Of a DNA stretch of 64,000 bases, positions 1-15,867 are shown piece after piece; the first letter of the stretch is position 1; each line of letters opens with the position of its first letter. Location: positions 79,154-143,153 of the forward strand of contig JBBTRX010000006.1 of the NCBI GenBank assembly GCA_038064975.1, given 5' to 3'. The notes beneath the pieces were generated by a model, which ran no database searches, was not told where the DNA came from, and saw only the letters and a program-made list of their open reading frames with translations. The position numbers and the translations under genes were made by a program. The DNA is from Patescibacteria group bacterium. Lineage in GTDB: Bacteria; Patescibacteriota; Minisyncoccia; UBA6257; 1-14-0-10-40-38.

Positions 1-1352
1 ATAGTAGTGGCGTTATTTCCCGCGCGTACACGGATCTTGGAAAAAAAGTATATAAGGGCCAAGTACTCGCAGAATTAAATACTAAAGATCTATGGGCGGG
101 AGTGCGTTCCGCAGAGGCGAGCGTGAATATCCAAAAAGCTACCCTAGAAGGATTAAAAGCTGGCTCACGTCCGGAAGATATCGCTTCTTCCCAAGCCGCG
201 CTTGATAAGGCAAAACAGGATCTTGAAAATATGTATTCCGGTATTAGCGATACCTCGTTTGATAGCTATGCAAAAGCAAATGATTCCGTGCGCATCCAGC
301 TTGACCCATTCTTTTCCAATGCAGAAACGACGAACCCCCAGCTTACATATACGACAGCAGACTATCAGTCGGAGACGAAAGCTGAAAACTTGCGCTATCT
401 TGCAACCGTTGCGCTAAACGCCTGGCAGGAAAAGTTACTCAGCATCAGCACTACAAATACTGGCCTTGAAACGCTTGTACAAGAAGAGCTTACATATCTC
501 GCGACAGCTCGCGATCTCATAAATAGTGTTTCAAAAACTCTGGATCTCGCGCCAGGGCTTACTGCAACAACACTCGCAACGTACAAAGCCGCAGTGTCCA
601 CTGCACTAAGCCAAGTGAACACAGCGATAAAAAATTTAAATACCATTTCGCAAAATATCGCTTCGCAAAAATTAACCGTTTCGCAATTGCAGGCACAATT
701 AAATCTTAAGATCGCGGGCTCTCTCCCAACCGACATCGCAGCGCAAGAAGCACAAGTAGGGCAGGCACTCGCAAGTTTGGATAGCGCAATCGCAAAACTG
801 CAAAACGCCCAGATCGTAGCTCCTATTAGCGGCATCGTCACGCAATTTGATGCAAAAATTGGCCAGCAAGCCTCCCAAGGCACTATTCTTGTTTCTGTCA
901 TGGCAGAATCTGGCTACGAAGTGCACGCCGGTGTTTCTGAAACCGATGTAGGGAAAGTTACGGTCGGGGATAAAGTCGCAATGACATTGGATGCTTTCGC
1001 TGGCGAAACATTCAACGGCACTGTTTTCTATATCGCACCTGCGGAAACGAATACCCAGGGAGTCGTAAGCTACGCGATTAAAATCTCATTTGATAAAGGC
1101 GAACCTCGGCTTAAAAGCGGGCTCACGGCAAACATAACCATAGAAACGAATCGTAAGGATAATGTGCTCATCCTGCCCCAATACGCCATTCTCCAAAATG
1201 ACGAGGGGATATTCGTTCAAGTATTGGATAGAGAAACGGTTAAAGACGTTCCAGTCAAGCTCGGCATTCAGGATCAAAACGGCAATGTAGAAGTGGTCTC
1301 TGGTGTTAAGGAAGGGGATCAAGTGTTGAACATCGGCCTCAAATCGCAATGA
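1..1352 (+). CDS. HlyD-family periplasmic adaptor (MacA-like membrane fusion protein), 5' end truncated by the window
   Basis: The reading frame is open from nt 3 and continues upstream of the window (SSGVISRAYTDLGKKVYKGQVLAEL...). It has a coiled-coil region plus a C-terminal beta-barrel with HlyD-like motifs, and is directly followed by an ABC ATPase and an FtsX permease. Confidence 0.75.
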   Translation, partial: SSGVISRAYTDLGKKVYKGQVLAELNTKDLWAGVRSAEASVNIQKATLEGLKAGSRPEDIASSQAALDKAKQDLENMYSGISDTSFDSYAKANDSVRIQLDPFFSNAETTNPQLTYTTADYQSETKAENLRYLATVALNAWQEKLLSISTTNTGLETLVQEELTYLATARDLINSVSKTLDLAPGLTATTLATYKAAVSTALSQVNTAIKNLNTISQNIASQKLTVSQLQAQLNLKIAGSLPTDIAAQEAQVGQALASLDSAIAKLQNAQIVAPISGIVTQFDAKIGQQASQGTILVSVMAESGYEVHAGVSETDVGKVTVGDKVAMTLDAFAGETFNGTVFYIAPAETNTQGVVSYAIKISFDKGEPRLKSGLTANITIETNRKDNVLILPQYAILQNDEGIFVQVLDRETVKDVPVKLGIQDQNGNVEVVSGVKEGDQVLNIGLKSQ

Positions 1353-2062
1353 TCACTGTTGAGAGTCTAAAAAAGGAATATTTAGAAGAAGAAACTCCCA
1401 CCTTAGCTCTGCAGGGCGTAACCTTCACTATTAAGAAAGGCGAGTTCGTTTCTATCATGGGCCCTTCCGGCTCGGGCAAATCAACCCTGCTCCACATTTT
1501 AAGCTTTCTAGATCGGCCTACCTCGGGTTCATATAAATTCCAGGGCAAGAGTATGGACGACATGTCAGACGAGGAGCTCGCGCATGTTCGGAATAAAGAC
1601 ATGGGCTTTGTATTCCAGTCGTTCAATCTGCTTTCGCGCCTTAGCGTATACGACAATGTAGAAATTCCTCTCCTCTATGCGAACGGCATTCCGCCCGGAA
1701 AACGGAAAGCGTTAGTAGAAGAAGCCGTTATCTCCGTGGGCCTGGAAGACAAGCTATATATAGAAGCGGGCAAGCTCTCCGGTGGGCAAAAACAGCGCGT
1801 AGCTATAGCACGCGCACTTGTGGCAGACCCGAATGTTATTTTTGCGGACGAGCCAACCGGCAACCTGGATTCCAAATCCGGCTTACAAGTCATGGAAATA
1901 TTGGAATCATTGCACGACAAGGGTCGCACCATAATACTCGTCACACACGAAACACAAACAGCGGAATTCGCAAATCGCATTATTAAAATAAAAGACGGCA
2001 TGGTAGAGAGTGACGAGCTGATTGCCTCAAATCGCAAGCGTAGGAACGGCGACTTAAAATAA
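1349..2062 (+). CDS. ABC transporter ATP-binding protein (MacB/LolD type)
   Basis: Walker [13 protein letters not shown] signature [15 protein letters not shown], Walker [16 protein letters not shown] start/stop overlap with the upstream adaptor gene. Confidence 0.88.
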
Positions 2063-2065
2063 TTC

Positions 2066-3316
2066 ATGCTCTTGAGAGACGCATTCAAAACTGCTACACG
2101 AAGTTTAACGCACGGCAAGATGCGCTCTATTTTAACGATGTTGGGGATCGTAATCGGCATTTCGTCCGTGATCGTCCTTATGTCCATCGGGCAGTCGGCG
2201 CAGGATCTTATTCTGGGCGAAGTGGAAAGTATCGGCTCCAACCTTATTATCGTGACCCCGGGTGCGCCAAGCGGGGACGCCTTTGCTCCGCCTCCTTCCG
2301 CGCAGGGGATAGTCATCACAACACTCTTAGAAAGGGATATTAAGGCCTTAGAGCGCGAGCCTTCCATTAAAGGCGCGGCTCCTATGGTAAGCGGCCAAGC
2401 AGAAGTTGTGTATGGAAATAATAATAAAACCGTAAGCTACCAGGGCTCTACGGCAGAATTATTTGTCATACAGAATCTTGAACTCAAGAGCGGATTTGCG
2501 TTTACTAAGTCAGACGTAAATTCTGGCAATCACGTGGCGGTAATCGGGCCTGACCTTGCAGAGACCTTATTCGGCAAGTACGTTAATCCGTTAAATAAAA
2601 CGATTCGGGTTAAAAATATTTCGTTTCGTGTCGTCGGAGTTTTGGAGGCGAGCGGTACAGGTGCTTTTGGCGTAAACCAAGGCGATATGGTGATCATTCC
2701 GATCACAGTCGCGCAAAAGGAACTTTTAGGCATCATCTATTTCAACAACATTCTTGTACAGGCGAATCCGGAATACGAAATTGATTTTGCAAAATCGCGC
2801 CTCACGTTCGCGCTTCGCCAATCACACGGCATCACGGATCCGAAAAAAGATGATTTTATTATTCAAACGCAGGCAGACATATTGTCTATCTTGGGGAGCA
2901 TCACTTCTATTCTCACGCTATTCTTGGCAGCGATCGCATCCATTTCGCTTATCGTGGGTGGCATCGGGATCATGAACATCATGTTAGTCGCGGTCACCGA
3001 GCGCACGCGCGAAATTGGTCTCCGTAAAGCCGTGGGCGCAACAGACGGGGATATTTTAAAACAGTTTTTAATTGAGTCGGTCTTGCTCACGTTTATCGGT
3101 GGTGCGATAGGTATAGCGGTGGGGGCGGGCATCGTGGGGTTAATTTACTTTGTACTTACCACGTTCTTTGCATCCCTAGGGTGGGTATTCGCGTTTCCAA
3201 TATCAGCGGTGGTCCTAGGCTTTGCAGTGTCGGGTATAGCAGGGTTAGTGTTTGGTATCTACCCGGCTCGCCAAGCAGGGAAGAAGAATCCGATAGATGC
3301 GCTGAGGTATGAATAA
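2066..3316 (+). CDS. ABC transporter permease, FtsX/MacB family
   Basis: N-terminal TM helix, large periplasmic domain, and a C-terminal four-TM FtsX domain ([30 protein letters not shown]). Confidence 0.85.
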
Positions 3317-3497
3317 CTCTTGGAATTTCCCGCTGGAAATTCCACTGCGGAGGGAAAAAGCTTCTCCAAAAAGCCGCAAAATCCCCAGGGCTGGTGAGTG
3401 GGAATTAGGTCTTTGCGTCGTAGATAGAGGATGTGATTTTGACGCCCCCGCCTTGCAAGCAGGACTGTTTTTATTTGTAAAAATATACGGTACAATA

Positions 3498-3698
3498 ATG
3501 AATATGATAATAAAGAGAATTTGTTTGTGGGTAGTTGTTACATCAATTATTCTTTTTGCGGTGATCGCGCTTCTTGCGATCTGGGATGTGATCAAAGACA
3601 ATAGTTTCGTCTGGAAATCACTCACTTCACTTGCCGTGGTCTGCTTCAGCGGCCTCGTGGGCGTTGTGCTAAGCGATAGGATAAAACCGATACAATAA
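3498..3698 (+). CDS. small membrane protein (66 aa, two predicted TM helices)
   Basis: MNMIIKRICLWVVVTSIILFAVIALLAIWDV... The ORF extends upstream to 3309, but the hydrophobic core starts at this ATG. A terminator follows immediately. Confidence 0.3.
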   Translation: MNMIIKRICLWVVVTSIILFAVIALLAIWDVIKDNSFVWKSLTSLAVVCFSGLVGVVLSDRIKPIQ

Positions 3699-3700
3699 TA

Positions 3701-3730
3701 AAAACCGAGCCTACTAGGGCTCGATTTTTA
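3701..3730. terminator. bidirectional intrinsic terminator between convergent genes
   Basis: Stem cgagcc/ggctcg with loop tactag. It is flanked by AAAA on the 5' side and TTTTT on the 3' side. Confidence 0.6.
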
Positions 3731-3740
3731 TTTGTAAATT

Positions 3741-4667
3741 TTATTGAGAAGTTTTCTCAATGATCATAGCAGTGTTTTTCAGACAAGTTTCTTTCTTCCT
3801 TTCTTGTTCTATAAATTCACAAACCGAAATGTCTGGCAATAAAGCAGCAACCGAATCAAAACAGCCGTCTTTATCGGTAAGATTAGTAAGATTATTACAA
3901 AGAGATGGATCGTGTTCTTGTACTGCTAAGTTAATATAACAAGCGCGTATAGTATATTTCCCCACATTAAGACAAATGTCAGAGTTTTTAGTCTGCAGAG
4001 CCGCATTGTTATAACAAATACCTTGCCAAATTTCACCTTTTAATAATTTACACGCTTCAGAGTCGCCAGTATTTCTTACCACTTCAGAAACGCATTCGGG
4101 AAATGTAGCGCTACTAGAAGGGTCATGAATTTTAAAACACAAAGAAATGTCATTTTGCGCAATCGCTTTTTGTTGTAAAAGCTTACTTTCTTCAGATGTC
4201 TGATATGAAGTAATTGAAAAAATAATAAAAACAAATAAAATAACGGACAGAAAATAATTAAATATCTCAATATTAGGGCGACGTTCCTTTTGTCTGTGTA
4301 GTATGGAAACGATAATTATTGAAACAATTGCGACCAACAAAGCAGGGGTGGCAAACCATAACAACTCACGGAACGAAACAAGATCTGCTTCCGGCAAAGC
4401 AATTTTATTGTAAACAAGCGGAGAGATAAAAACCCATACCATAGGAGCAATCCAGAGCAGTATTTTAGTCCTATGATAAAGAAGAAGAGATGCTAAAAAT
4501 AAAAGAAAAAGAATTCCAAAATGAGCTATTCCATACGAATTAAGGGTTGCGAAAAATCTGCCCTGATAACGGTAATTCAGAATAAGTCTTGGCAGAAGAG
4601 TAATAAGGGATGAGCCAATAATAGCAAGAGCAATATTATGTAGTATTTTTCTTAATGTTGCGTTCAT
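3741..4667 (-). CDS. integral membrane protein with a C-terminal Cys-rich extracytoplasmic domain (hypothetical)
   Basis: Five or six predicted TM helices in the N-terminal 170 aa, followed by a domain with more than 12 Cys. The DNA is AT-rich (island). Confidence 0.5.
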   Translation of the reverse strand: MNATLRKILHNIALAIIGSSLITLLPRLILNYRYQGRFFATLNSYGIAHFGILFLLFLASLLLYHRTKILLWIAPMVWVFISPLVYNKIALPEADLVSFRELLWFATPALLVAIVSIIIVSILHRQKERRPNIEIFNYFLSVILFVFIIFSITSYQTSEESKLLQQKAIAQNDISLCFKIHDPSSSATFPECVSEVVRNTGDSEACKLLKGEIWQGICYNNAALQTKNSDICLNVGKYTIRACYINLAVQEHDPSLCNNLTNLTDKDGCFDSVAALLPDISVCEFIEQERKKETCLKNTAMIIEKTSQ

Positions 4668-4727
4668 ATATAAATTCTATCAGATATTTTCTAGGTTTGC
4701 AGAATTGGGCAAAAAGGGGCAGAATAA

Positions 4728-4847
4728 TTTGAAGTTACTATTCCTATAGAAATAGTTCGCGAACTCAAATGGAAAGAGAGGCAGCGCGTAGTCGTAACCA
4801 AGAAGGAAAAATCTTTGATTATTAAGGACTATACTCCGAAGAAGTAA
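4728..4847 (+). pseudogene. AbrB/MazE (SpoVT-AbrB swapped-hairpin) antitoxin-like remnant without a canonical start codon
   Basis: Frame 3 translates FEVTIPIEIVRELKWKERQRVVVTKKEKSLIIKDYTPKK*, which contains the IPxEIR and KxGDxV-like core of AbrB/MazE domains. No ATG, GTG or TTG start lies after the preceding TAA, and no toxin partner follows. Confidence 0.25.
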
Positions 4848-4912
4848 GAGGGTGTAAAGAGATTTCTTACAGGGATATTTGAGGCAAAGGTTTTTCTGCT
4901 ATTGATATATCT

Positions 4913-5530
4913 ATGAATATTTTTCAAAAAGGAAATTTTGAACCATTGTCTAATGAATTTAAACGATTAGGATTTTTAGCTTTGCAACAACTATCAAAAT
5001 TTCAAAAAAAATTTAATATTAGTGACACAGACACAACAATTAATTCTATTAGAGATACTATTGTTTCTAGTTATTTAGGCTTTGATCTTATTAATAAGAA
5101 CAAGCATGGTTTCGATGCAAAAAATAGTAGAACCGGAGAGTTTCTTGAAGTTAAGCAGTGTAGTTCGTCTGCAAAAAGATGGGGTGGCACATGGAATGAT
5201 ACGAATTTTGAAAAAGCAAAAGCTTTTTCAAATGCAAAATTATTTACAGCAGTTGCTGTCTGGAGTGGCGCCAGTGATCTTCAATTTATTGTTTTTGGTC
5301 AGAATAAAAAGTTAGGTTTATATTTACTGGATAGAGTAAAAAATAGAAAAAGCGGAAGTCGTTCAACACAAACTATTAGTATAGAAAAACTTATAGAGTG
5401 GGGGTTTATCGTTATTGTGCCTCCCGACAAAAAAGTAAACGCAGTATTGAAACAATTAGCTGTATATAAAAAGGGAGTATCTAAATATCTTAATTCTAAA
5501 AACATTAAGAAAGTAAATAATTTTAGATAA
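4913..5530 (+). CDS. putative type II restriction endonuclease (PD-(D/E)XK fold) of an R-M module
   Basis: HGFDAKNSRTGEFLEVKQ gives D-x10-E-V-K, a canonical PD-(D/E)XK catalytic spacing. AT-rich, basic, and convergent to a DNA methyltransferase gene. No other family signal was recognised. Confidence 0.4.
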   Translation: MNIFQKGNFEPLSNEFKRLGFLALQQLSKFQKKFNISDTDTTINSIRDTIVSSYLGFDLINKNKHGFDAKNSRTGEFLEVKQCSSSAKRWGGTWNDTNFEKAKAFSNAKLFTAVAVWSGASDLQFIVFGQNKKLGLYLLDRVKNRKSGSRSTQTISIEKLIEWGFIVIVPPDKKVNAVLKQLAVYKKGVSKYLNSKNIKKVNNFR

Positions 5531-5532
5531 AT

Positions 5533-6228
5533 ATGTTAATAGATAAATTTAATAAATTTCTAAAATCGATTGATCTTGAGGCTTATAGAAATCAATATAG
5601 GCCCGTTAAGATTGTAGAAATGGATTTATCCAAAGAGATACAAGCAATTGAAATGCTTTATGAAGTTTATTGGCATCAAAAAAGATTTTTGACGTTTGAA
5701 GAATTTTATGAAGAATATTTAAAAAGTAAGGGAAAAGAGATTGAAGTTTTTAGAAAAAAGACTACGATGTGCAAAGATTGTTTCTATAGAGGATTGCCTG
5801 CAAGAATTTATAGAACATGGGCTAGTATTATTACTCAAATACATGCAGGATATGTCGCTGAGTCTGTTTTTGGAACAGGGACAGTCTCTATGTCTATAGA
5901 ACTTGATCATAAAGGAGCGGATTTTCAGGTTGAATATATAAAGAGAATTTTAAATTATCAAGTAAAAAAGAAATCTCTTGGCAGAGAAGTTAGACAAGAA
6001 AAACCAAAATCAAAGAACCCGTTAAAAGGGGAATTTGTAGATATTAAATACGAAGTTCCTAGTAGTGATTATTTTGAAAATCCGAAAAAGAAGAATGGGG
6101 ATTATAAATTGCCATATGAAAGATTTAAAAACAATAAAGAATTAGAAAGATTTTCAAACGGCTTTGTTGTTTTTACTCCCTATGTTTTTCAGAAAAAGAA
6201 AAAGGAAATAGATGATACTTTAAAATAA
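5533..6228 (+). CDS. hypothetical protein, probable second component of the R-M-like module (nuclease or specificity subunit)
   Basis: Begins 3 nt after the preceding stop (operon). Contains ELDHKGADFQVEYIK acidic/Lys motifs. AT-rich island composition. No confident family assignment. Confidence 0.4.
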   Translation: MLIDKFNKFLKSIDLEAYRNQYRPVKIVEMDLSKEIQAIEMLYEVYWHQKRFLTFEEFYEEYLKSKGKEIEVFRKKTTMCKDCFYRGLPARIYRTWASIITQIHAGYVAESVFGTGTVSMSIELDHKGADFQVEYIKRILNYQVKKKSLGREVRQEKPKSKNPLKGEFVDIKYEVPSSDYFENPKKKNGDYKLPYERFKNNKELERFSNGFVVFTPYVFQKKKKEIDDTLK

Positions 6229-6229
6229 T

Positions 6230-7744
6230 TCAAGAAATATTTACACTAGATACTATCTTTTCGGCCATCCGTACGTAATCGGGATTAATCTCAAAACCGA
6301 TATACGATTGTCCTAATTCTTTTGCTGCGACACATTCTGAACCAGTTCCCACAAACGGGACGAGAACCACGCCGTCTTTATTCGGAATTGCTGACCTGAT
6401 AAGCCTTCTAGAAAGCTCAAGGGGTTTCTGTGTAGGATGTTTCATTATTTCATGTCCTTCGTGTTTCTGTAATTGTCGTGGCGCATGTACTTCGTCGCAG
6501 GTTTTGCATAAAAACCATCTTTCAATCATTCCTGCTCCACCAGCTAAAGCAGCGATTTTAATAACATCTCGGGGCAATGCTCCACCAGCATGAGCGTTGT
6601 AAATAGTCTCAGTCCCTCCTTTACTGAATCTTCCCACCGTTCCTTTTCTTACTTTTCCAGCAGCTCCATTTAAAAATCCTTCGGTATAGGGTTCCCTAAC
6701 GTCATCTCTATTAAAATTTGGCTTCTCTTTCCAAGCGCAAATAATTGATTCATGACTTCTCTGCCAAAAATTTAAAGAAGCAACATTTTTATTCGTATAA
6801 TGCCAAATTAACCAGCGTTTATTTATAGGGATTTCTACAGAGAGATGAGCTAAAATTTCACTAAATCCATATATAAACATTGTTCCCGCTGGTTTCATTA
6901 TCCTAATACTTTGATTGATCCATTCTTTGCACCACGAAACATATTCACTTAATTCTCGTTTATCAATGTTATTTCCAAAATCTTTACCGATATTATATGG
7001 AGGATCAATTATAATAACGTCGCAACTTTCTGACGGCAAATCTGATAATCCTTTTATTACATCACTTAATAATATTTTATTGAGTGGGAGTTTTTGATAT
7101 TTTTTCTCTTCCCTTTTGATTTTCGGCAAAACCGAAACATTTTGAGGATTTTCTTTAATCACATCAAGTACGATTCCTTGTATAGAAACATCACGATCAT
7201 CTCGTAATATGATCGGCTCCATGTTTTTATTTGCCGGCTGTAATCGTATATGATTTTTTTCTTTATAGAATTTTTTTAACGTTGCTTCTTGATTATCTAT
7301 TAATGCAACAACTTTTTCTCCATTGTTTGCCGTTGATTGATGTTTGACAAGAATGATGTCCCCATCATTTATATTTTCTTCAACCATACTATTGCCAATC
7401 ACGCGAAGCGCATAAACATCTCCAGAAAGGGGGATTCTGTTTTGCGGTACAGCAATCGTTTCTTTTTCTACGTCAAAAAGAGTAAGGGGTTGTCCTGCGG
7501 CAATGGCGCCCAAGAGGGGAACTTTCACTAATTTTTCTGATCTGGATATCGTTATACTGCGCGGCTTATTGATTTGTTTATTTAATAAACCCATTTCTTC
7601 TAATGCGCTTACGTGCTGGTGTACGGTAGAGACTGCTCGCAATTTGAAATGATGCTTAATTTCTTGGAGTGAAGGAGCGTACCCCTTTTTAGCGGTGGAA
7701 GCGATAACAAAGTCGTAGATTTGTTTTTGTTTCCTTGTGAGCAT
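6230..7744 (-). CDS. LexA repressor fused to a beta-class N4-cytosine/N6-adenine DNA methyltransferase
   Basis: The N-terminal 200 aa align along their whole length with LexA: LTRKQKQIYDFV winged HTH, the Ala-Gly cleavage site in PLLGAIAAGQP, catalytic Ser in GNSM and Lys in ATLKKF. The C-terminal 300 aa carry IIIDPPYNIG (motif IV DPPY), HPTQKPLEL and VLVPFVGTGSE (motif I); this order is typical of pfam01555-type MTases. Confidence 0.8.
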   Translation of the reverse strand: MLTRKQKQIYDFVIASTAKKGYAPSLQEIKHHFKLRAVSTVHQHVSALEEMGLLNKQINKPRSITISRSEKLVKVPLLGAIAAGQPLTLFDVEKETIAVPQNRIPLSGDVYALRVIGNSMVEENINDGDIILVKHQSTANNGEKVVALIDNQEATLKKFYKEKNHIRLQPANKNMEPIILRDDRDVSIQGIVLDVIKENPQNVSVLPKIKREEKKYQKLPLNKILLSDVIKGLSDLPSESCDVIIIDPPYNIGKDFGNNIDKRELSEYVSWCKEWINQSIRIMKPAGTMFIYGFSEILAHLSVEIPINKRWLIWHYTNKNVASLNFWQRSHESIICAWKEKPNFNRDDVREPYTEGFLNGAAGKVRKGTVGRFSKGGTETIYNAHAGGALPRDVIKIAALAGGAGMIERWFLCKTCDEVHAPRQLQKHEGHEIMKHPTQKPLELSRRLIRSAIPNKDGVVLVPFVGTGSECVAAKELGQSYIGFEINPDYVRMAEKIVSSVNIS

Positions 7745-7875
7745 ATACTAATTTTAACAATAAAATACCGAAAGAAAACCGAAACTTATCCCCAGATTGC
7801 TTTGTGCATTTTTAGAGAGTAAAATACTAATGTAAATTTAAGGTCCGACTTAGAAAAAGCACTTCGTTTCTTCCA

Positions 7876-7902
7876 AGCCGGGCTCCCGCCCGGTTTTGTT
7901 TA
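7876..7902 (+). terminator. orphan intrinsic terminator-like hairpin 18 nt upstream of the next start codon
   Basis: ccgggc-tccc-gcccgg followed by ttttgttt. No plus-strand gene lies upstream. Confidence 0.4.
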
Positions 7903-7919
7903 GAAAAAATTAACAGTAT

Positions 7920-8855
7920 ATGATCAATGCAATAGAACTTTACGGAACCCTAATTCTTACTTTACTTGGCTTTATTGTTCCCATTCTAACGATTCTACTT
8001 TCTTTATTTCCACAAGGTACAAAATCATTAGCACTTAAATATGAAAATGAAAGAAAGCAAAGTGAAGAAAATATTTCAAATGAAATTAAAAAGAAAGAAA
8101 CAGAAAAAGGACTAGATTACGATTCTCTTAAGGAGACGCTGAAAGGTTTAGAAAAAAAGAGGTCAGAAGCTAAATCAAAGCTTGAGTATTTACATCCAGG
8201 CAGCTTTCTTTTCAAAACAACGATCCCATTCATTGTTGCATTCATGGGCGTATTACTCATATTACTTGACATACCAATTTTTGAAACGATTATAGTATTA
8301 ATCTCTAGCATTTTTGCTTTCGTAGCCGGAGTTATGACTTTATTTACTAGCATATCTGTTCTATTTGAAGTAGGAGAAATCACTAACCAAGCAAAAAATT
8401 CTAACGAAGAAAAAATAATTGAACTCTTATCAATTTTAGTTGAAAACAGTGGAACAGATAACCTTTATTTAAAAGAAGACGAAATCAAAGTGAAATTCGG
8501 TGATAAAAATCTAAAAGAAAACGAGAAGTTTGATTTTTCAGTTAACACTCAACATAAAATATCCATTAGGGTCCATAACAGCGCAGACAAGATGGCAAAA
8601 AATATTGAAGTAGGCTTTGTCTTTCCTAAAGATGTTTTAATAGAGAAAACATCTAATCTATCTTCAATATTTACAGATGAATCAATTCAAATTGTAAGAT
8701 TCAAGAATGAAATAATTCAGGCACATGAAAGTAATGATAAAGGTGCTCTACGAATTACTTTTTTGAAACCCGGAGAGGTGTCAATAGATCTATTTATAAA
8801 AGGAGAAAACGTAAAATACAAAAGATTTTCTTTCAAACTTAATATAATAAACTAA
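7920..8855 (+). CDS. membrane protein with charged coiled-coil segment (hypothetical)
   Basis: Two TM pairs flank a KE-rich segment; the C-terminal domain is soluble. AT-rich island composition. Confidence 0.5.
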   Translation: MINAIELYGTLILTLLGFIVPILTILLSLFPQGTKSLALKYENERKQSEENISNEIKKKETEKGLDYDSLKETLKGLEKKRSEAKSKLEYLHPGSFLFKTTIPFIVAFMGVLLILLDIPIFETIIVLISSIFAFVAGVMTLFTSISVLFEVGEITNQAKNSNEEKIIELLSILVENSGTDNLYLKEDEIKVKFGDKNLKENEKFDFSVNTQHKISIRVHNSADKMAKNIEVGFVFPKDVLIEKTSNLSSIFTDESIQIVRFKNEIIQAHESNDKGALRITFLKPGEVSIDLFIKGENVKYKRFSFKLNIIN

Positions 8856-8880
8856 TATAGTTCTAGAAAAAATAATAAAA

Positions 8881-9294
8881 ATGGAAATAATAAAAGATAT
8901 TAAAGATCGCATTCAGTTCCTAGTAACCATTGAAATATTTTTTCTGACTTTGACTTACTCTTTCTTTAGATCTGTGGGAAGTGATGAGTTGGTGTCTAAC
9001 AAGAATGCTTTCGCATGGGGAATAGGTGTTGCTTTTTGTATAGTGAATTATCTTTTGATCGGAAATTTTACTGAATTTAAAAGTTCTTTTCTTAAGAAAA
9101 TTTGCTGGACTATATCTGCAAATATTTTCTTTTTTATTATACCGATTCTGATTTTCGCCTCCGCCATGAGCAATCCATTACCATCTTATTATAATTTACC
9201 ATTTTATCTTTCTCTCACGGGAACATTATGGATGCCCATTATAACGACTGCTTTTATGGTTATAGGAGGAACTTATTTTAAATTTAAAAAATAA
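8881..9294 (+). CDS. hypothetical integral membrane protein (4 TM)
   Basis: Hydrophobic 137-aa ORF. It is the last gene of the AT-rich island. Confidence 0.45.
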   Translation: MEIIKDIKDRIQFLVTIEIFFLTLTYSFFRSVGSDELVSNKNAFAWGIGVAFCIVNYLLIGNFTEFKSSFLKKICWTISANIFFFIIPILIFASAMSNPLPSYYNLPFYLSLTGTLWMPIITTAFMVIGGTYFKFKK

Positions 9295-9296
9295 TT

Positions 9297-9773
9297 ATGA
9301 GGATAAACAACACATTCAAGCTCATTATAGCCATTGTTGTTTCCGAACTCGCCGGGATCATTGGCTCGGTATTCACGATATCGTCCGTCGCTGGCTGGTA
9401 TGCAGGAATCGTGAAGCCGGCAATTAATCCTCCAGCGTGGGTGTTCGGACCGGTCTGGACGACGCTCTTTGCGCTCATGGGCATCGCCGCGTTCCTCGTA
9501 TGGAAGAAAGGATTGGATCGTAGGGATGTAAAAATTGCCCTCGGTATATTTCTCGGCCAGCTAATCCTGAACACGCTTTGGTCAATTATCTTTTTCGGTC
9601 TACGCAGTCCTGGCGGTGCATTGATTGAGATCGTATTCCTCTGGCTCGCCATTCTCGCTACTATCATCGCTTTTGCAAAAATCTCAAAACCGGCAGCTTG
9701 GCTTTTGGCGCCGTATATCCTTTGGGTTAGCTTCGCGATGTACTTAAACTACGCAATCTGGGCATTGAATTAA
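9297..9773 (+). CDS. tspO: TspO/MBR family tryptophan-rich sensory protein
   Basis: Five-TM architecture with conserved Trp/Pro patterns (PPAWVFGPVWTTLF, LWSIIFFG, APYILWVSFA). GC content returns to the genome average here. Confidence 0.85.
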   Translation: MRINNTFKLIIAIVVSELAGIIGSVFTISSVAGWYAGIVKPAINPPAWVFGPVWTTLFALMGIAAFLVWKKGLDRRDVKIALGIFLGQLILNTLWSIIFFGLRSPGGALIEIVFLWLAILATIIAFAKISKPAAWLLAPYILWVSFAMYLNYAIWALN

Positions 9774-9783
9774 AACATGAGTA

Positions 9784-9819
9784 CAACATTCCAACATTCT
9801 GCAGATTGTTGGAATGTTG
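9784..9819. repeat. palindromic repeat copy 1 (CCAACATTCTGCAGAATGTTGG family), one mismatch; candidate operator/promoter element
   Basis: caacattccaacattctgcag/attgttggaatgttg pairs at 17 of 18 positions about a CTGCAG centre. It is followed by TGTAAATAT, which looks like a -10 box. Confidence 0.7.
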
Positions 9820-9907
9820 TAAATATTGCGCAATATTATTAATCAAATCACATTTTGTGCGTAATAGCGTTCATATATATACTAGATACAGAAAATAAAA
9901 ACTAATT

Positions 9908-10672
9908 ATGCAAAAAACATTACTTTCAATTGGAGGCGTTCTCATCATTCTCGTCGTGGGGTTCTTTGTGCTGAATAGCTACATATACAATGAAAAGCAG
10001 GCGGGCTTTACCGCAGGGGATACGGTTTCGGCTACAGGCACCGTGCTTGCTATTGATTTGGAACAGGTAGCCTTTGATGGGCCATTCCTGATTACCTTAA
10101 AGCCTGAGGACGGCAAGCTCCTCACAATTGCCGTGCCTTCTATGGGACTGCAACTCTGTGAGGCGTATAAGGCGCTCAATATTGGTGACGTATCGCTCAT
10201 TAAAGTAGGCGACGAGTTTGAAGTGCGCGGAATCGTAGGCGAAGACGGCTCAATCGTCCCATGCGAATCCGCGGATCACTATCTGCGCCCCACGCCACTT
10301 ATTGTGGAGGACTTTGAAGGCGAAGCAGATCCTAAAGTCATGACACTCAACATGAAAACGTGGAATTGGATATATGCAATGAGTGGTGGAGAGGAAATTC
10401 AACCAAAAGCTCCAGGCATATTTACGCTCACATTTGGTGAAGAAAATAGATTTACCGCCACAACCGACTGCAACGCCATGTCCGGCAGCTACTCTGTAGG
10501 TACCTCCACGATTGCGTTCTCAAAAATCATCAGCACAAAAAAATTCTGCTCAAATTCCCAGGAATCTGATTTCGCATCCATCCTTCAAAAAGCAACCGGC
10601 TACCACTTCACCTCCCGCGGCCAACTCATTCTAGACTTCAAAACCCCCTCCGACACCGCAGAATTCAACTAA
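9908..10672 (+). CDS. membrane-anchored extracytoplasmic protein with C-terminal META/HslJ-like (DUF306) domain
   Basis: N-terminal signal-anchor MQKTLLSIGGVLIILVVGFF. The C-terminus reads ...FTLTFGEENRFTATTDCNAMSGSYSV...KFCSNSQESDFASILQKATGYHFTSRGQLILDF, which matches the META-domain pattern. Confidence 0.6.
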   Translation: MQKTLLSIGGVLIILVVGFFVLNSYIYNEKQAGFTAGDTVSATGTVLAIDLEQVAFDGPFLITLKPEDGKLLTIAVPSMGLQLCEAYKALNIGDVSLIKVGDEFEVRGIVGEDGSIVPCESADHYLRPTPLIVEDFEGEADPKVMTLNMKTWNWIYAMSGGEEIQPKAPGIFTLTFGEENRFTATTDCNAMSGSYSVGTSTIAFSKIISTKKFCSNSQESDFASILQKATGYHFTSRGQLILDFKTPSDTAEFN

Positions 10673-10720
10673 CCCTTACCTCACGACACTCCAACATTCT
10701 GCAGATTGTCGGAATGTTGT
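10670..10720 (+). repeat. 51-bp direct repeat, copy A (begins at the stop codon of the preceding gene and includes palindrome copy 2)
   Basis: taacccttacctcacgacactccaacattctgcagattgtcggaatgttgt is identical to 11599..11649. Confidence 0.85.
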
Positions 10721-10740
10721 AAATAGAGCAAAACAACATT

Positions 10741-11601
10741 ATGCAAAAAACGCTACCAATAATTATCATCATGATAATCATCGTGGGTTTTGGTGTAGCG
10801 TGGAAGTTCGTAAACAATGAAGCGCCGAGGGGTATGAGCACTGAATGCACGAAAGATTCCGATTGCCCCTCTCTACTATATCTCTGTGAGGAAACACAGG
10901 GTTCGGGAACGGTGTGCTCCAGCACCGACCCCACATGTGTTCCTACGCACACGACCATTGCAGGAGAATGCAAAGTAAAAGAAGGTAATCGTTGTACGCT
11001 GGATTCAGACTGCGCTTCCGGAAATATATGTAATAACAACCTTTGTACAAGTCCGATCGGAAGGGAATGCAGCGGACCAAGCGACACGAGCTGTCCCACG
11101 GATTTTGAATGCATACAAGGGTGCGGTTCGCCAGTTGGGTATCCAGGTGAGCCACCGCCTCCATACTTCTGTCAGCTTAAAGGCTATATTCGCTCGTGCC
11201 CTATTTGTCTTGCCAAACATACGTTAATTGATACGCCGCTTGGTGCGGTAGCAGTAGAAAATTTACAAAAAGGTACACCAGTGTGGACGGTGAGTAGTTC
11301 CGGCGAGCGCGTTTCCGGAGTAGTTACGCTGACGAGCAAAACGCCCGTTCCGTTAAGTCACAGGATGGTACAGCTTGTACTACAAGATGGGCGTACGCTT
11401 TCTGTTTCTCCAGGACACCCGACTACTGATGGACGCAAGGTAGGAAGCCTCACTCCAGGCGAGGTATATGACGGCGCTCGGATAATTTCTTCTCACCGAG
11501 TTGCCTACGGAGACGGATATACCTACGATCTTTTACCCTCGGGCGAAACCGGATTTTACTTCGCAAACGGGATTCTTCTTGATAGTACACTCCGCCCCTA
11601 A
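10741..11601 (+). CDS. secreted/membrane-anchored Cys-rich protein with C-terminal Hint (bacterial intein-like/Hedgehog-type) autoprocessing domain
   Basis: Signal-anchor MQKTLPIIIIMIIIVGFGV, a region with about 20 Cys, then Hint blocks. Block A is CLAKHTLIDTPLG, block B (TxxH) is LSVSPGHPTT, and blocks F/G are YTYDLLPSGETGFYFANGILL. There is no terminal HN and no C-extein. Confidence 0.65.
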   Translation: MQKTLPIIIIMIIIVGFGVAWKFVNNEAPRGMSTECTKDSDCPSLLYLCEETQGSGTVCSSTDPTCVPTHTTIAGECKVKEGNRCTLDSDCASGNICNNNLCTSPIGRECSGPSDTSCPTDFECIQGCGSPVGYPGEPPPPYFCQLKGYIRSCPICLAKHTLIDTPLGAVAVENLQKGTPVWTVSSSGERVSGVVTLTSKTPVPLSHRMVQLVLQDGRTLSVSPGHPTTDGRKVGSLTPGEVYDGARIISSHRVAYGDGYTYDLLPSGETGFYFANGILLDSTLRP

Positions 11602-11649
11602 CCCTTACCTCACGACACTCCAACATTCTGCAGATTGTCGGAATGTTGT
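11599..11649 (+). repeat. 51-bp direct repeat, copy B (includes palindrome copy 3)
   Basis: Identical to 10670..10720. The TGgTAATAT extended -10 sits immediately 3' of it, and the ArsR start codon is about 7 nt beyond that, implying a leaderless transcript. Confidence 0.85.
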
Positions 11650-11665
11650 GTGGTAATATAGAGAG

Positions 11666-11953
11666 ATGGACAAGACGAAATCACCAAAACAGATGGAACG
11701 TCATCTGAAGGGGATGGCGAATCATTATCGTATTGAGATACTTCTTCTTATCGCCGATCGCTCGAAAATAACGCTGGAGGAAATTACCGACATAGTTGGG
11801 GCAAACGAGAAAACCCTTAGTGAACACACAGGTAAACTCTATCAAGTTGGACTGATCAATAAAAAATACCGCGGCAGGTTTGTAGAACACTCCCTGTCGC
11901 CCTACGGCAAAACATTCGTCCGTTTCTTACAATCATTCCAAAACACGCAATAA
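11666..11953 (+). CDS. ArsR/SmtB-family winged-helix transcriptional regulator
   Basis: HLKGMANHYRIEILLLIADRSKITLEEITDIVGANEKTLSEHTGKLYQVGLINKKYRGRFVEHSL matches the ArsR HTH-wing pattern. It is flanked on both sides by the palindromic repeat. Confidence 0.75.
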   Translation: MDKTKSPKQMERHLKGMANHYRIEILLLIADRSKITLEEITDIVGANEKTLSEHTGKLYQVGLINKKYRGRFVEHSLSPYGKTFVRFLQSFQNTQ

Positions 11954-11998
11954 CATTCCAACATTCTGCAGAATGTTGGAATGTTATTGTTTTTGTTT
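11951..11998 (+). terminator. palindromic repeat copy 4: perfect 36-nt palindrome plus U-tract, an intrinsic terminator
   Basis: taacattccaacattctgcagaatgttggaatgtta has 18-bp perfect arms around TGCA, followed by ttgtttttgttt. It overlaps the ArsR stop codon. Confidence 0.75.
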
Positions 11999-12073
11999 GC
12001 AAATCTCATGCGGTAAGAGCAGAATTAGCTTTTCAAACCCATTAACTCATCAACTGTTTAACTCATTAACTAC

Positions 12074-13819
12074 ATGAAGCTCCTCTGGCAATACATTAAG
12101 CAACAGAAAAAGATACTTATCCTTGCGCTTGTTTTAGCGACGATTAACCAAGTTTTCTCTCTGCTTGATCCGCAGGTATTTCGGCTTATCGTTGATAGAT
12201 ACGCTACGAATGCATCCTCATTTACTGCTTCGGAGTTCGCCCGTGGGATTTTAGGATTACTCTTGTTATCTATGGGAGTAGCGTTTGTTTCTCGTGTCGC
12301 GAAGAATTTCCAAGATTATTATGTAAGCATCATTACTCAGCGAGTCGGCGCTAATCTTTATGCCCACAGCATCCATCATTCATTCTCTTTACCCTACGCA
12401 GCGTTTGAAGACCAGCGTTCAGGTGAATTGTTGTTGAAACTACAAAAAGCGCGTACGGACGCGCAAACACTCATTACGAGTTTTGTGGGAATTATATTCC
12501 TATCCACGGTAAGTATGGTCTTTGTGGTTGGCTATGCCTTTACTGTTAATTGGATTATTGGCACGGTGTATTTAGCTATTATTCCGATTGTCGGTACAGC
12601 ACAGTTTTATCTCTCGCGACGTATTAAAGGGGCTCAAAAAGAAATTGTCACGCAGACTGCATCCCTCGCTGGAGCTACAACAGAAACATTGCGGAACGTT
12701 GAGCTCGTGAAAAGTCTTGGGCTTGAAGCCCAGGAATCTGGACGATTGAACGACGTGAACGAAAAAATATTAGGTTTAGAATTACGAAAAATTCGGTTAA
12801 TTCGCGCACTAAGTTTTATCCAAGGAACAACGATCAACGCTATTCGCTCGGCGCTTCTTTTCCTTATGATGTGGCTTATCTTCAAGCAGGCGATAACGTT
12901 TGGAGAATTTTTCAGTCTTTATATTTATCTCTTCTTTATAATGGAACCGTTATCCAGCTTGGGTACGATTGCAAATACGTACCAGGAAACCCGCGCGAGC
13001 ATGGAGAAGCTTCAGCAAATTTTAGATACTCCTGCAGAAAAGAAACCGGAACATCCGCATACGATTGGTTCGCTAGACTCCATCACATTTAAAGACATGA
13101 GCTTTGCGTACAATGCGGGCAGCGAGCATTCTGCGAAGCAAATTAATCTCACGGTGGAAAAAGGGCAGACCGTAGCATTCGTAGGACCATCCGGATCTGG
13201 AAAGACTACAATGGTTAAAATTCTCCTTGGACTCTATAGGCCGACGAGCGGAAAGCTGCTCATGAATGGCGTGGACAGTGAATCTATTGATTACGACGCA
13301 CTCCGTAGGCGTATTGGTTATGTCTCACAGGACACGCAACTCTTTGCCGGTACGATTCGAGAAAACTTATTATTCGTAAATCCCGAAGCAAGCGATTCGG
13401 AATGTATGGAGGCATTACGGCATGCATCCGCTCTGCCTATTATTGAGCGCGGAGGAAAGGGACTCGAGACAAGGATCGGAGAAGGTGGAATTAAAATCTC
13501 GGGTGGAGAGCGCCAGCGCCTCGCGATTGCCCGCGCATTACTTAGGAATCCGGACCTCATTATTTTTGACGAAGCGACGAGCAGTCTTGATTCCCTGACG
13601 GAAAAAGAAATTTCGGATACTATTAAAAGTATCGGTATTACGCGGCCGAACTTGATGACGATCATGATCGCGCACCGGCTCTCTACGATTGCCCATGCGG
13701 ATACGATCTACGTTCTAGAACAAGGCAGGCTAGAAGAGCAGGGGACGCATAAGGGATTGCTGGAAAAGCGTGGTTTGTATGCAGCATTATGGAGAGAGCA
13801 GGGAGCAAACAGAGAATAG
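12074..13819 (+). CDS. ABC exporter, fused permease-ATPase (MsbA/MdlB-like)
   Basis: Six-TM N-terminal domain. C-terminal ABC domain with GPSGSGKTT, ISGGERQRLAIARAL and IIFDEATSSLD. Confidence 0.88.
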   Translation: MKLLWQYIKQQKKILILALVLATINQVFSLLDPQVFRLIVDRYATNASSFTASEFARGILGLLLLSMGVAFVSRVAKNFQDYYVSIITQRVGANLYAHSIHHSFSLPYAAFEDQRSGELLLKLQKARTDAQTLITSFVGIIFLSTVSMVFVVGYAFTVNWIIGTVYLAIIPIVGTAQFYLSRRIKGAQKEIVTQTASLAGATTETLRNVELVKSLGLEAQESGRLNDVNEKILGLELRKIRLIRALSFIQGTTINAIRSALLFLMMWLIFKQAITFGEFFSLYIYLFFIMEPLSSLGTIANTYQETRASMEKLQQILDTPAEKKPEHPHTIGSLDSITFKDMSFAYNAGSEHSAKQINLTVEKGQTVAFVGPSGSGKTTMVKILLGLYRPTSGKLLMNGVDSESIDYDALRRRIGYVSQDTQLFAGTIRENLLFVNPEASDSECMEALRHASALPIIERGGKGLETRIGEGGIKISGGERQRLAIARALLRNPDLIIFDEATSSLDSLTEKEISDTIKSIGITRPNLMTIMIAHRLSTIAHADTIYVLEQGRLEEQGTHKGLLEKRGLYAALWREQGANRE

Positions 13820-13834
13820 GGTTTAGGTCGAGGA

Positions 13835-14131
13835 GTGGGAGCGACGAAGATGTCGCAGTTTAATAAAACGCGACGTACTATTGAATCTATGTACTCCGTC
13901 TACATTCTAGAGTGTGCTGATAAAACTCTTTACATAGGGTCTACAAACGATTTAAAAAAGCGACTAAAGGCACATAACGGATTAAAGGGCGGGGCGCATT
14001 ACACAAAAATTCGCCGCCCGGTGACACTCAAGTATTCGGAAAATGTGAGAACCTTTGCAAAAGCCCGTAGTCGAGAAGCGGAATTAAAAAGATTATCCAG
14101 AGAAGAAAAATTAAAACTTATACAATTATGA
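13835..14131 (+). CDS. GIY-YIG nuclease superfamily protein (UPF0213-like); the real start may be the internal ATG at 13889
   Basis: MYSVYILECADKTLYIGSTNDLKKRLKAHNGLKGGAHYTKIRRPVTLKYSE matches the GIY-YIG consensus. Confidence 0.7.
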   Translation: MGATKMSQFNKTRRTIESMYSVYILECADKTLYIGSTNDLKKRLKAHNGLKGGAHYTKIRRPVTLKYSENVRTFAKARSREAELKRLSREEKLKLIQL

Positions 14132-14313
14132 AACTATTTACATCATATACATTCACGTGGTGGCAGATCGGTATTTTTAAATTAGCGCTCCTTTCAATCG
14201 GTGCTGCAATCGGTGCGTATTGCTCTGAGTTTTTCCAAGCCAATATGACTGCGGTTATTATTGTTGCGGTTGTCTCAACCGTGTACGTCCTCTACGTAGC
14301 TTTGAAACAATAA
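14128..14313 (+). CDS. small membrane protein (61 aa, 2 TM), translationally coupled
   Basis: ATGA overlap with the upstream gene. Hydrophobic. Confidence 0.35.
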   Translation: MKLFTSYTFTWWQIGIFKLALLSIGAAIGAYCSEFFQANMTAVIIVAVVSTVYVLYVALKQ

Positions 14314-14315
14314 TA

Positions 14316-14618
14316 ATGGAAAAGTACAATAAGCTCGTAAGAGATAATATTCCCGATATTTTGGATAAAAAGAATATCCCGTACGAAAAGAGGATCGCTT
14401 CGGAGAGTGAATATAAAACCGAACTTATTAAAAAACTGGATGAGGAAATGAAAGAATTTTCTATTGAAGGCAGTCCGGAGGAACTCGCTGACATTCTAGA
14501 AGTAGTTGAAGCGTTAAAAACGTTGCCAGAATATGAAACGGTGGAAAAAATAAAAAAAGAAAAACGTAAAGAAAAGGGTGGTTTTGAAAAGCGGATAATT
14601 CTCCAAGGAGAGAAATAA
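14316..14618 (+). CDS. MazG-like all-alpha nucleoside triphosphate pyrophosphohydrolase (house-cleaning NTP-PPase) family protein
   Basis: N-terminal KLVRDNIPDIL and an ELADILEVVEAL helix are typical of MazG/YpjD-like proteins. Confidence 0.5.
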   Translation: MEKYNKLVRDNIPDILDKKNIPYEKRIASESEYKTELIKKLDEEMKEFSIEGSPEELADILEVVEALKTLPEYETVEKIKKEKRKEKGGFEKRIILQGEK

Positions 14619-14649
14619 GGCTTATAAAACAGCGTTCTTTTGGGGGTCA

Positions 14650-14678
14650 TTGACAAAATAGAGATTTAGGAGTATCAT
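14650..14678 (+). promoter_or_regulatory. sigma70-type promoter of the cold-shock gene
   Basis: TTGACA, a 17-nt spacer, then TATCAT. The 5' UTR is about 55 nt long, typical of csp genes. Confidence 0.6.
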
Positions 14679-14737
14679 CGTCTTAAGCAATTAAGAGATG
14701 TGGTCGGATTTCTAAGAAGCAGAACAAAACAATTACC

Positions 14738-14935
14738 ATGACAGGAAAAATCAAAACACTCACAGAAAGAGGATTTGGATTCATTTCTCGCGAAGGCGAA
14801 GCAAAGGATCTATTCTTTCATTCTAAAGAGTTGGTTGGTGTTACCTTTGATGAACTCAGCGTTGGCGACGAAGTCACCTTCGAAGTTGCTGAGGGAGAAA
14901 AAGGTCCGAATGCCGTAAAGGTATCTCGCGCATAA
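14738..14935 (+). CDS. cspA: cold-shock protein (CspA family)
   Basis: GFGFISREGEAKDLFFHSKEL...GPNAVKV carries the RNP1/RNP2 motifs. Confidence 0.92.
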   Translation: MTGKIKTLTERGFGFISREGEAKDLFFHSKELVGVTFDELSVGDEVTFEVAEGEKGPNAVKVSRA

Positions 14936-14954
14936 GACACTAATTTAAATCAAA

Positions 14955-14986
14955 AACCGCTTAGCCATTTGGCCGAGCGGTTTTTG
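14955..14986 (+). terminator. intrinsic terminator after csp
   Basis: ccgcttagcc-attt-ggccgagcgg followed by ttttt. Confidence 0.6.
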
Positions 14987-15059
14987 ATTGTGTATATTCA
15001 TGAGCAGTTCACGGTATGATTATTACGGTAAAAAGGAGTAGAATGTAACTATTAAACAA

Positions 15060-15473: not shown

Positions 15474-15865
15474 ACAGAATTGTACATTTTGAAATTCAGG
15501 TGGAAAATCCTGAACGGGTAATAAAGTTTTATCGCGATGTTTTTGGCTGGGAATTTCCAAAGTGGGTTGAAGAACCGCCCTATTGGGCAGTAATGACTGC
15601 TCCAAAGGATAGTAAAGAGCCGGGTATTAATGGCGGACTACTTTTGCGTCCATGTCCTGCGCCTGCACTAGAACAGGGAACTAATGCATTTACATGTACA
15701 GTACAAGTTGATGATTTTGATTCGATAGCAGAAAAAATAGAAAAAGCTGGTGGTAAAGTCGCAATGCCGAAGTTCGCGCTTATGGGAGTTGCCTGGCAAG
15801 GATACTTTATAGACACTGAGGGAAATACATTTGGAGTCCATCAGGCGGATAGTAATGCAAAGTAA
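15470..15865 (+). CDS. VOC/glyoxalase-bleomycin resistance family protein
   Basis: MNRIVHFEIQVENPERVIKFYRDVFGWEF... and C-terminal ...GNTFGV. ATGA overlap with the upstream gene. Confidence 0.7.
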   Translation: MNRIVHFEIQVENPERVIKFYRDVFGWEFPKWVEEPPYWAVMTAPKDSKEPGINGGLLLRPCPAPALEQGTNAFTCTVQVDDFDSIAEKIEKAGGKVAMPKFALMGVAWQGYFIDTEGNTFGVHQADSNAK

Positions 15866-15867
15866 TA

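Follow-up and report, generated by a model that had tools for sequence, protein, structure and literature searches.

The AT-rich block at positions 3724-9329 of the stretch analyzed here (64,000 nucleotides of contig JBBTRX010000006.1, called the window below) is a small variable region, or islet, between tspO and the macAB efflux operon with its accompanying small membrane-protein gene. The window comes from a metagenome-assembled genome of the Patescibacteria, or candidate phyla radiation (CPR). The islet was probably put together piecemeal from AT-rich CPR accessory DNA, around a core formed by a Type II restriction-modification (R-M) module which presumably acts on TCGA and whose DNA methyltransferase is fused to a LexA repressor. 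This reading draws on the composition, boundaries and gene content of the block, the distribution of its parts among other genomes, the depletion of TCGA and the conservation of the LexA cleavage residues, and extends from these to a predicted specificity, a likely route of acquisition and a proposed mode of regulation.

The G+C content is 33.6% in 3330-9295 and 44.2% in the remainder of the window, and the 6-kb interval of lowest G+C content in all 64 kb begins at about 3401. An earlier reading of the letters alone (the sequence-only reading) had delimited 3330-9295 as a genomic island because of such a drop, citing about 22% G+C in 5041-5100, for which the computed value is 21.7%. A maximal-scoring-segment test (AT 0.68 vs 0.558, with 200 shuffles as control) placed the top AT-rich segment at 3724-9329 (5,606 bp, 32.8% G+C vs 44% elsewhere). 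Its log-likelihood ratio (LLR) of 150.4 compares with a maximum of 14.1 in the shuffles and 18.5 for the runner-up segment of the window. The drop is therefore borne out for the AT-rich core of the earlier interval; its first ~400 bp are of native composition.

The six contiguous genes of 3741-9294 have a G+C content at third codon positions (GC3) of, in order, 0.26, 0.19, 0.21, 0.29, 0.23 and 0.28. These are the six lowest values of 78 open reading frames (ORFs); the other 72 have a minimum of 0.30 and typically lie at 0.36-0.46. As the deficit lies at third codon positions, the AT drop is not solely a matter of amino-acid content. Oligonucleotide usage was compared between 5.6-kb sliding windows and the rest of the window. 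The tetranucleotide correlation is lowest at the block (r = 0.675 vs ~0.93), where the difference in dinucleotide relative abundance peaks (~68 vs ~20-30). The sliding-window G+C and tetranucleotide analyses, which the sequence-only reading had proposed as checks, thus found a composition that is not uniform, with the block as its least typical part. A composition foreign to the window, at synonymous sites as well as in oligonucleotide signature, is supported for 3724-9329.

The left edge had previously been set at an inverted repeat at 3322-3343. The repeat exists, as a hairpin at 3321-3344, but the DNA around it is of native composition (~50% G+C), GGAAATTCC is found only at 3335, and the hairpin is not repeated near the right edge. 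The window has about nine distinct sites with perfect gene-end hairpins of this type, compared with 1.6 in shuffles. The repeat is the gene-end hairpin of macB, about 400 bp outside the compositional edge, and not an island boundary. The small membrane-protein gene that follows it is native (the enclosing ORF, 3309-3698, has a G+C content of 0.43 and a GC3 of 0.45), so that the left edge is placed at the terminator of this gene, at about 3724. On the right the change in composition lies some 33 nt inside tspO, at about 9329, and the boundary formerly placed at the tspO start was correct within ~35 nt. The stop of the four-helix gene at 9294 lies 2 nt before the tspO start at 9297, and tspO is left without a native upstream region. 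The features are listed in Table 1.

Table 1. Features of the islet and its immediate borders (positions in the window)
Feature	Positions	Strand	Remarks
Hairpin	3321..3344		TGGAATTTCC-CGCT-GGAAATTCCA; perfect 10-bp stem, 5 nt after macB stop
Small membrane protein gene, 66 aa	3498..3698	+	Native composition; no Pfam family
Terminator hairpin	3706..3733		CGAGCC-TACT-AGGGCTCG, then T-run; on sequence, looks usable from both strands
Membrane-anchored protein with Cys-rich repeats, 308 aa	3741..4667	-	GC3 0.26
Frameshifted MazE/AbrB-type (SpoVT/AbrB fold) antitoxin-like remnant	4705..4847	+	PF04014
orf205, candidate Type II restriction endonuclease	4913..5530	+	PvuII-like PD-(D/E)XK fold
TaqI-family restriction endonuclease, 231 aa	5533..6228	+	PF09573; PADLOC REase_II
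LexA-methyltransferase fusion, 504 aa	6230..7744	-	Convergent with nuclease operon
TG(T/G)GGATAA motif, candidate regulatory site	7786..7794	-	Upstream of fusion start
GC-rich hairpin	7878..7901	+	CCGGGC-TCCC-GCCCGG, then TTTTGTTT; read directly from sequence, absent from consensus-scan list
Membrane protein, helical/coiled-coil N-terminal half and Ig-like beta-sandwich C-terminal domain, 311 aa	7920..8855	+	
Four-helix membrane protein, 137 aa	8881..9294	+	GC3 0.28
tspO, right flank	9297..9773	+	Native composition; GC3 0.58

An assembly or binning artefact, in which DNA of a lower-GC organism was chimerically joined into the contig, was considered, as the source is a metagenome-assembled genome and the G+C steps are abrupt. 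Contigs assembled separately per sequencing run also break, at ~6968-6995 and at ~9466-9473. These contigs, from five runs of two projects, are nevertheless 100% identical to the window over 1-6995 and 6968-9473, and between them cover both junctions, that of macB and island in one of the loci fetched for comparison (designated by L-numbers; here L001) and that of island and tspO in L183-L187. In addition, block and flanks are both depleted in TCGA. Reproduction of the two junctions in the five-run contigs argues that the block is not a chimera, and an artefact is regarded as extremely improbable. The contig ends shared by all five runs, which fall within the conserved methyltransferase domain and within tspO, suggest branching of the assembly graph, perhaps due to near-identical methyltransferase sequence in co-occurring organisms or to strain variation in tspO.

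The R-M module occupies 4913-7744 and is of Type II by gene content (PF09573 and PF01555; PADLOC REase_II and MTase_II). Its TaqI-family nuclease matches PF09573 with 121.9 bits (cut-off 26.1) over profile positions 2-219 of 229, and PADLOC REase_II with E = 9e-32. The nuclease gene and the convergent fusion gene are 1 nt apart. The same pairing is kept in L083, L086 and L170, where the nuclease adjoining the LexA-methyltransferase gene is 72-75% identical to that of the window.

The two-nuclease operon is opened by orf205, whose stop lies 2 nt before the start of the TaqI-family gene. No match to orf205 was found in Pfam, NCBIfam or PADLOC. Its family has 213 members with an invariant HGFD...LE(V/I)K motif, in which D68, E79 and K81 do not vary. 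The AlphaFold model (predicted local distance difference test score 90.4) has its best PDB matches with PvuII, at TM-scores of 0.52-0.68 and a probability of 1.0. The methyl-dependent enzymes DpnI, NhoI and Eco15I are also among the structural matches, so that the fold alone does not settle the mode of action. The sequence-only reading had described every gene of the block as either unassignable or defence-related. The defence cargo stands, with the R-M module and the MazE/AbrB remnant, while orf205 moves from the unassignable genes to the endonuclease candidates.

In other genomes the two nucleases occur singly. A two-gene system of orf205 with a plain PF01555 methyltransferase is present in an Ignavibacteria contig (L174), and in the CPR loci L177-L179 orf205 is the sole nuclease and is directly convergent with the fusion gene. 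Both together were observed only in the window, in tandem with the 2-nt gap. Whether the partner is one nuclease or the other, the methyltransferase domain stays ~82% identical, and for this reason both nucleases most likely serve one specificity.

A conserved 118-aa gene stands divergently to the LexA-methyltransferase gene in two unrelated hosts (L083, 9551-9907, with a faint GIY-YIG hit; L086, 9540-9896). It is absent from the window and may belong to the module as one more optional component. The GIY-YIG gene of the window at 13835-14131 was considered as a relative, and no similarity was found. A small separate helix-turn-helix controller gene of the C-protein type was not found in the module of the window; in L083 an 81-aa HTH_3 gene lies beside the nuclease gene.

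In the fusion protein, the winged-helix DNA-binding domain of LexA and its self-cleaving S24 domain are joined through a variable linker to an N6/N4 DNA methyltransferase of the beta class (PF01555). Residues 2-198 pass the TIGR00498 lexA equivalog model with 179.6 bits vs a cut-off of 110.95. In the alignment to Escherichia coli LexA, the A-G cleavage site, Ser119 and Lys156 correspond to A83-G84, S119 and K157 of the S24 domain of the fusion; DPPY and FxGxG motifs are present in the methyltransferase. The 120 closest fused homologues of the window protein are 69-75% identical to it overall and share the three-domain layout, with the exception of the N-terminally short P0032. Where names are given the homologues belong to the CPR, apart from one labelled Pacearchaeota. 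A83, G84, S119 and K157 and, in the methyltransferase, DPPY and the F-G-G core of FxGxG do not vary in any of the 120. The domains differ in mean identity to the window protein (DNA-binding 51%, S24 65%, linker 34%, methyltransferase 81%). Protein clusters that conserve the fusion at ~70% identity number well over a hundred and come from several CPR lineages. As judged from the sequences, the conservation of the cleavage residues in all 120 homologues suggests that self-cleavage is used and that control is linked to the DNA-damage (SOS) response.

TaqI recognizes and cuts TCGA (PMC5587805), and TCGA is the most depleted 4-bp palindrome of the window. A maximal-order Markov model predicts 208 sites, of which 68 are observed (ratio 0.33, z = -9.7); the next-lowest ratio of such a palindrome is 0.72. 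Each of the eight 8-kb bins is depleted (0.12-0.44), as is the island, where the DNA outside the R-M genes has 0 sites vs 4.9 expected (P = 0.008). The observed/expected ratio has a median of 0.96 over the 120 fetched loci that are 8 kb or longer. All fetched loci with a fusion gene (L083-L086, L170-L173 and L177-L179) have ratios of 0.31-0.55, while the nearest relatives by MacB are not depleted (L003 0.99, L004 0.94), nor are L007, L011 and L039.

Specificity for TCGA is supported by this depletion together with the TaqI-family nuclease. The methyltransferase is accordingly predicted to methylate TCGA, and both nucleases to cut it when unmethylated. The lineage has long been under TCGA restriction, with two thirds of the sites lost, and a depletion so uniform over 64 kb speaks against this specificity having simply been acquired recently. 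It is most economical to suppose that many CPR lineages have lived with TCGA systems of this family for a long time, and that the local copy and its neighbours have been renewed from a shared AT-rich pool.

In a translated comparison with L083, L086, L170 and L177, similarity is confined to 5530-7744, i.e. to the TaqI-family nuclease and the fusion. The neighbours of the module differ from locus to locus: a HEPN/DUF5343 pair and pilus genes in L083, small hypothetical genes and a YafQ toxin gene in L086, and a block of small AT-rich genes with a Fic/HTH pair in L170. The G+C content of the module is 37.3% vs 46.2% in the flanks in L177, 46% and 38% vs ~49% in L170, and 36.6% and 33.3% vs 37.9%, a small gap, in the low-GC L083. 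LexA-methyltransferase modules seem to lie repeatedly in AT-rich variable regions. The coiled-coil/Ig-like gene, whose 45-member family is spread across CPR lineages, stands alone and without R-M genes in the two contexts examined, where it is again AT-rich (L180, 36.6% vs 53.6%; L181, 27.7% vs 43.8%). Likewise, the R-M pair occurs without the rest of the block in unrelated CPR contexts. With its parts distributed independently among genomes, the block is a mosaic, in which at least three AT-rich units that circulate separately lie together with genes without close relatives, rather than one mobile element.

The neighbourhood of the module in a CPR host of ~54% G+C (L170, 6500-8500; L171, 1000-3000) again consists of small hypothetical genes, of 31-36% G+C, and a YdjM-family gene (faint Pfam hit) lies just past them. 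TspO is encoded near the fusion gene in L170. Conserved synteny was rejected there, as the TspO proteins are 38% identical and the intervening genes unrelated.

In a search of 185,579 species genomes the best MacB matches have 73%, 69% and 66% identity, and those in JGI metagenome contigs 55%. The nearest genomes by MacB belong to the CPR, and only the macAB operon is syntenic. Look-ups of the exact MacB, TspO, META, fusion and four-helix proteins returned only the same organism. The island proteins are all singletons at 90% identity, except that one 127-aa fragment clusters with the TaqI-family protein.

A single integrative element (prophage remnant, integrative island or transposon) between macB and tspO, with the 3322-3343 repeat as one end, would account for a block that is sharp-edged, contiguous and of uniformly low GC3, and for its defence-type cargo. 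However, a search of the flanks for integrase remnants and att-like direct repeats, which the sequence-only reading had recommended, was carried out and yielded neither. No integrase, recombinase or transposase is encoded in the block or in the flanking genes scanned (102-3316 and 9297-18301). No tRNA or tmRNA was found in the whole 64-kb window, and att-like repeats are limited to short AT-rich chance pairs of low identity, none of them at both edges. Of the classical marks of a genomic island, the block therefore has the atypical composition and lacks the tRNA, the flanking direct or inverted repeats and the mobility gene. The supposed end is the macB hairpin, which has no partner at the right edge. 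Among 50,697 phage and 72,556 plasmid records only separate LexA or methyltransferase matches were obtained and no full-length fusion; viral contigs gave two distant matches (40-42% identity). As the parts are moreover found separately in other genomes, a single element is very unlikely. The earlier interpretation of horizontally acquired DNA carrying the LexA-methyltransferase system is thus upheld in its foreign composition and R-M cargo, and not in the single carrier island that it implied. Instead, the islet would have been assembled by several separate acquisitions from an AT-rich accessory pool common to CPR bacteria. Recombination of taken-up DNA is the likely route, because no integrase, tRNA or att site was found.

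Another alternative is that the block is old and native, being AT-rich by type of gene (toxic or weakly expressed defence genes, and membrane proteins with a high content of Ile, Lys, Asn and Phe), with the R-M genes inherited vertically. The window-wide depletion of TCGA and its absence from the island DNA outside the R-M genes indicate that the lineage has lived with TCGA restriction for a long time. Also in favour are the very wide distribution and high conservation of the fusion protein in the CPR and the tight spacing between tspO and the final gene of the island. In L170 the G+C content of the module rises with that of the host, which suggests long residence there. The deficit, however, concerns third codon positions in six adjacent, unrelated genes and in no other gene of the window, and the oligonucleotide signature differs too. 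Elsewhere the R-M pair and the coiled-coil gene are sharply AT-rich inserts in unrelated contexts, TCGA is not depleted in the closest relatives by MacB (L003 and L004), and the hairpins resembling repetitive extragenic palindromes (REP) of the right flank, described below, are absent from the block. A native origin is therefore considered unlikely, though it retains appreciably more weight than a single element, and piecemeal acquisition is preferred.

A candidate regulatory site, TG(T/G)GGATAA, lies 45-75 nt upstream of the fusion start in five of five distinct loci (outside the window at L083 9929, L086 9918, L170 8560 and 8628, and L177 10175). Its sequence is that of the DnaA-box consensus TTATCCACA in reverse complement, and in the window the direct repeat TTTCGGT-N4-TTTCGGT comes next; in some loci 11-nt-spaced direct repeats come after the motif. 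L170 has a second copy, inverted and immediately next to the start codon. Besides an operator, the motif could represent a site for DnaA or mark where the conserved DNA of the module ends. A palindromic LexA box could not be defined from the five distinct upstream regions.

The following mode of control is proposed. The LexA part, as a dimer, would bind the promoter region of its own module and hold down expression of the methyltransferase. DNA breaks, caused by self-restriction or by phage attack, would activate RecA, whereupon the fusion would cut itself at A83-G84. Cleavage would detach the DNA-binding domain from the S24-methyltransferase body and shift the balance of methylation to restriction. 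This could have either of two outcomes: the methyltransferase would be derepressed and the chromosome rescued from self-restriction, or it would be lost or destabilized and the nucleases would kill the infected cell. The tandem nucleases could capture the in-place replacement of one nuclease by the other, a suggestion prompted by the genomes which carry either nuclease alone with the same methyltransferase. Put together, the fusion may be a damage-gated R-M switch common across the CPR, which could also serve as the sole SOS repressor where no stand-alone lexA exists, with the tandem nucleases a non-orthologous replacement caught in the act. This wider proposal is tentative and is put forward with distinctly less confidence than piecemeal assembly around the R-M core.

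Several points weigh against the reading adopted here. The cognate methyltransferase of TaqI itself is of a different class from this beta-class enzyme. TCGA is also depleted, without the module, in the 11-14 kb fetched of the CPR loci L005 (0.37) and L006 (0.27). Exposure of the lineage to TCGA restriction has been long, and the R-M module could be an old resident that is AT-rich for other reasons. The tight right junction could likewise mean that the four-helix gene is an old neighbour of tspO. No near genome with a macB-tspO interval that lacks the block was found, and acquisition is deduced from the composition of the block and from where its parts occur in other genomes. As regards regulation, no recA gene is present within the window, the DNA-binding domain is only ~51% identical among the homologues, and the upstream regions are of at least two types.

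The remaining genes of the block lie on either side of the R-M module. The Cys-rich protein has no close relatives; only its C-terminal repeats (~residues 140-305) match other proteins, at 25-35% identity. The MazE/AbrB fragment reaches 24.6 bits against the PF04014 cut-off of 24.7 when its two frames are joined, and 22.2 bits with the intact frame alone. With its reading frame interrupted and no toxin gene nearby, it is a decayed remnant. The four-helix protein has no family match in Pfam, NCBIfam or PADLOC, and no remote-homologue search was made for it. The Cys-rich, coiled-coil/Ig-like and four-helix proteins are presumably surface or membrane accessory proteins. The GC-rich hairpin at 7878-7901 stands between the divergent LexA-methyltransferase and coiled-coil membrane genes and has no plus-strand gene upstream. 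It is terminator-like and, from its sequence and position, may be left over from an earlier gene arrangement or insulate the gene that follows. No Rfam families were found in the island at a permissive threshold or in the whole window at the gathering threshold.

Some features of the rest of the window are also recorded. REP-like palindromic hairpins (TTCCAACATTC...GAATGTTGGAA) at 9782-9821, 10689-10722, 11618-11628 and 11956-11981 come after four successive genes of the right flank (tspO, META, Hint and ArsR); there are 10 matches at no more than one mismatch vs 2.0 expected, and none within the AT-rich block. The Hint gene (10741-11601), of native composition, encodes a Cys-rich N-terminal half and a Hint (intein-like) domain that scores 27.6 bits vs a Pfam cut-off of 28.4. 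A milder low-GC stretch at 13835-15473 (36-40% G+C) holds the genes for a 98-aa GIY-YIG protein and a DUF1428 protein and a minus-strand ORF of 132 aa without assignment, and may be another small accessory patch. The runner-up AT-rich segment of the window (37126-37561; LLR 18.5) is intergenic, 436 bp long and of 29.8% G+C, with a terminator-like hairpin at ~37209-37232; it matches no Rfam family.

Genomic islands with R-M genes have been described in Patescibacteria, one of them with a full Type I R-M system, and most of the transfers reported were between Patescibacteria (PMC12455944). Like these, the islet is a compositionally atypical R-M segment in a streamlined CPR genome, with parts that occur CPR-wide. 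It differs in its size of 5.6 kb, in having no mobility genes, tRNA or repeats, in being of Type II, and in being a mosaic of independently distributed parts. In itself the islet is ordinary, since small AT-rich variable regions with R-M genes are already known in Patescibacteria (PMC12455944).

Its nuclease resembles the TaqI family (PF09573) in scoring far above the cut-off and in the avoidance of TCGA above all other 4-bp palindromes. It departs from the TaqI system in a beta-class PF01555 methyltransferase fused to LexA, in a second, unrelated nuclease directly upstream, and in a specificity that is predicted. Methyltransferases of the SsoII type repress their own gene via an N-terminal helix-turn-helix domain, and the site of PvuII is CAGCTG. 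With PvuII (PDB 1PVI, 1PVU and related entries) orf205 shares the modelled fold, the D...ExK motif and a PF01555 methyltransferase as partner; the differences are an identity of only 14-17%, the lack of a Pfam family and the presumed TCGA specificity. The fusion resembles LexA (TIGR00498; E. coli structures 1JHH and 3JSO) in passing the equivalog score and in the aligned cleavage site and catalytic dyad. Unlike LexA it carries ~300 residues of DNA methyltransferase at the C-terminus, and its gene is embedded in an R-M module.

Self-repressing Type II methyltransferases and the control of R-M systems by controller (C) proteins have been reviewed (PMC3874152; PMC2647307). As in those systems, a DNA-binding module is tied to the R-M genes and would be expected to determine which of methyltransferase and nuclease is expressed first and in what ratio. 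Unlike them, the islet has a complete LexA, with winged helix, S24 domain and conserved catalytic residues, so that its regulator could be switched off irreversibly by DNA damage. No publication was found that describes a LexA-methyltransferase fusion, or an R-M regulator switched off irreversibly by DNA damage. The LexA-fused methyltransferase with two unrelated nucleases is apparently an undescribed variant of R-M control.

The islet is of value as a clean, well-bounded example of piecemeal assembly in genomes without obvious mobility genes. The avoidance of TCGA by carriers of the module offers a genomic marker with which uncultured lineages that have the system may be traced. If self-cleavage is functional, the fusion would connect the DNA-damage response directly, at the molecular level, to the control of restriction. 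Should the fusion be the only SOS repressor in some of these reduced genomes, their DNA-damage response would be tied to a selfish R-M module.

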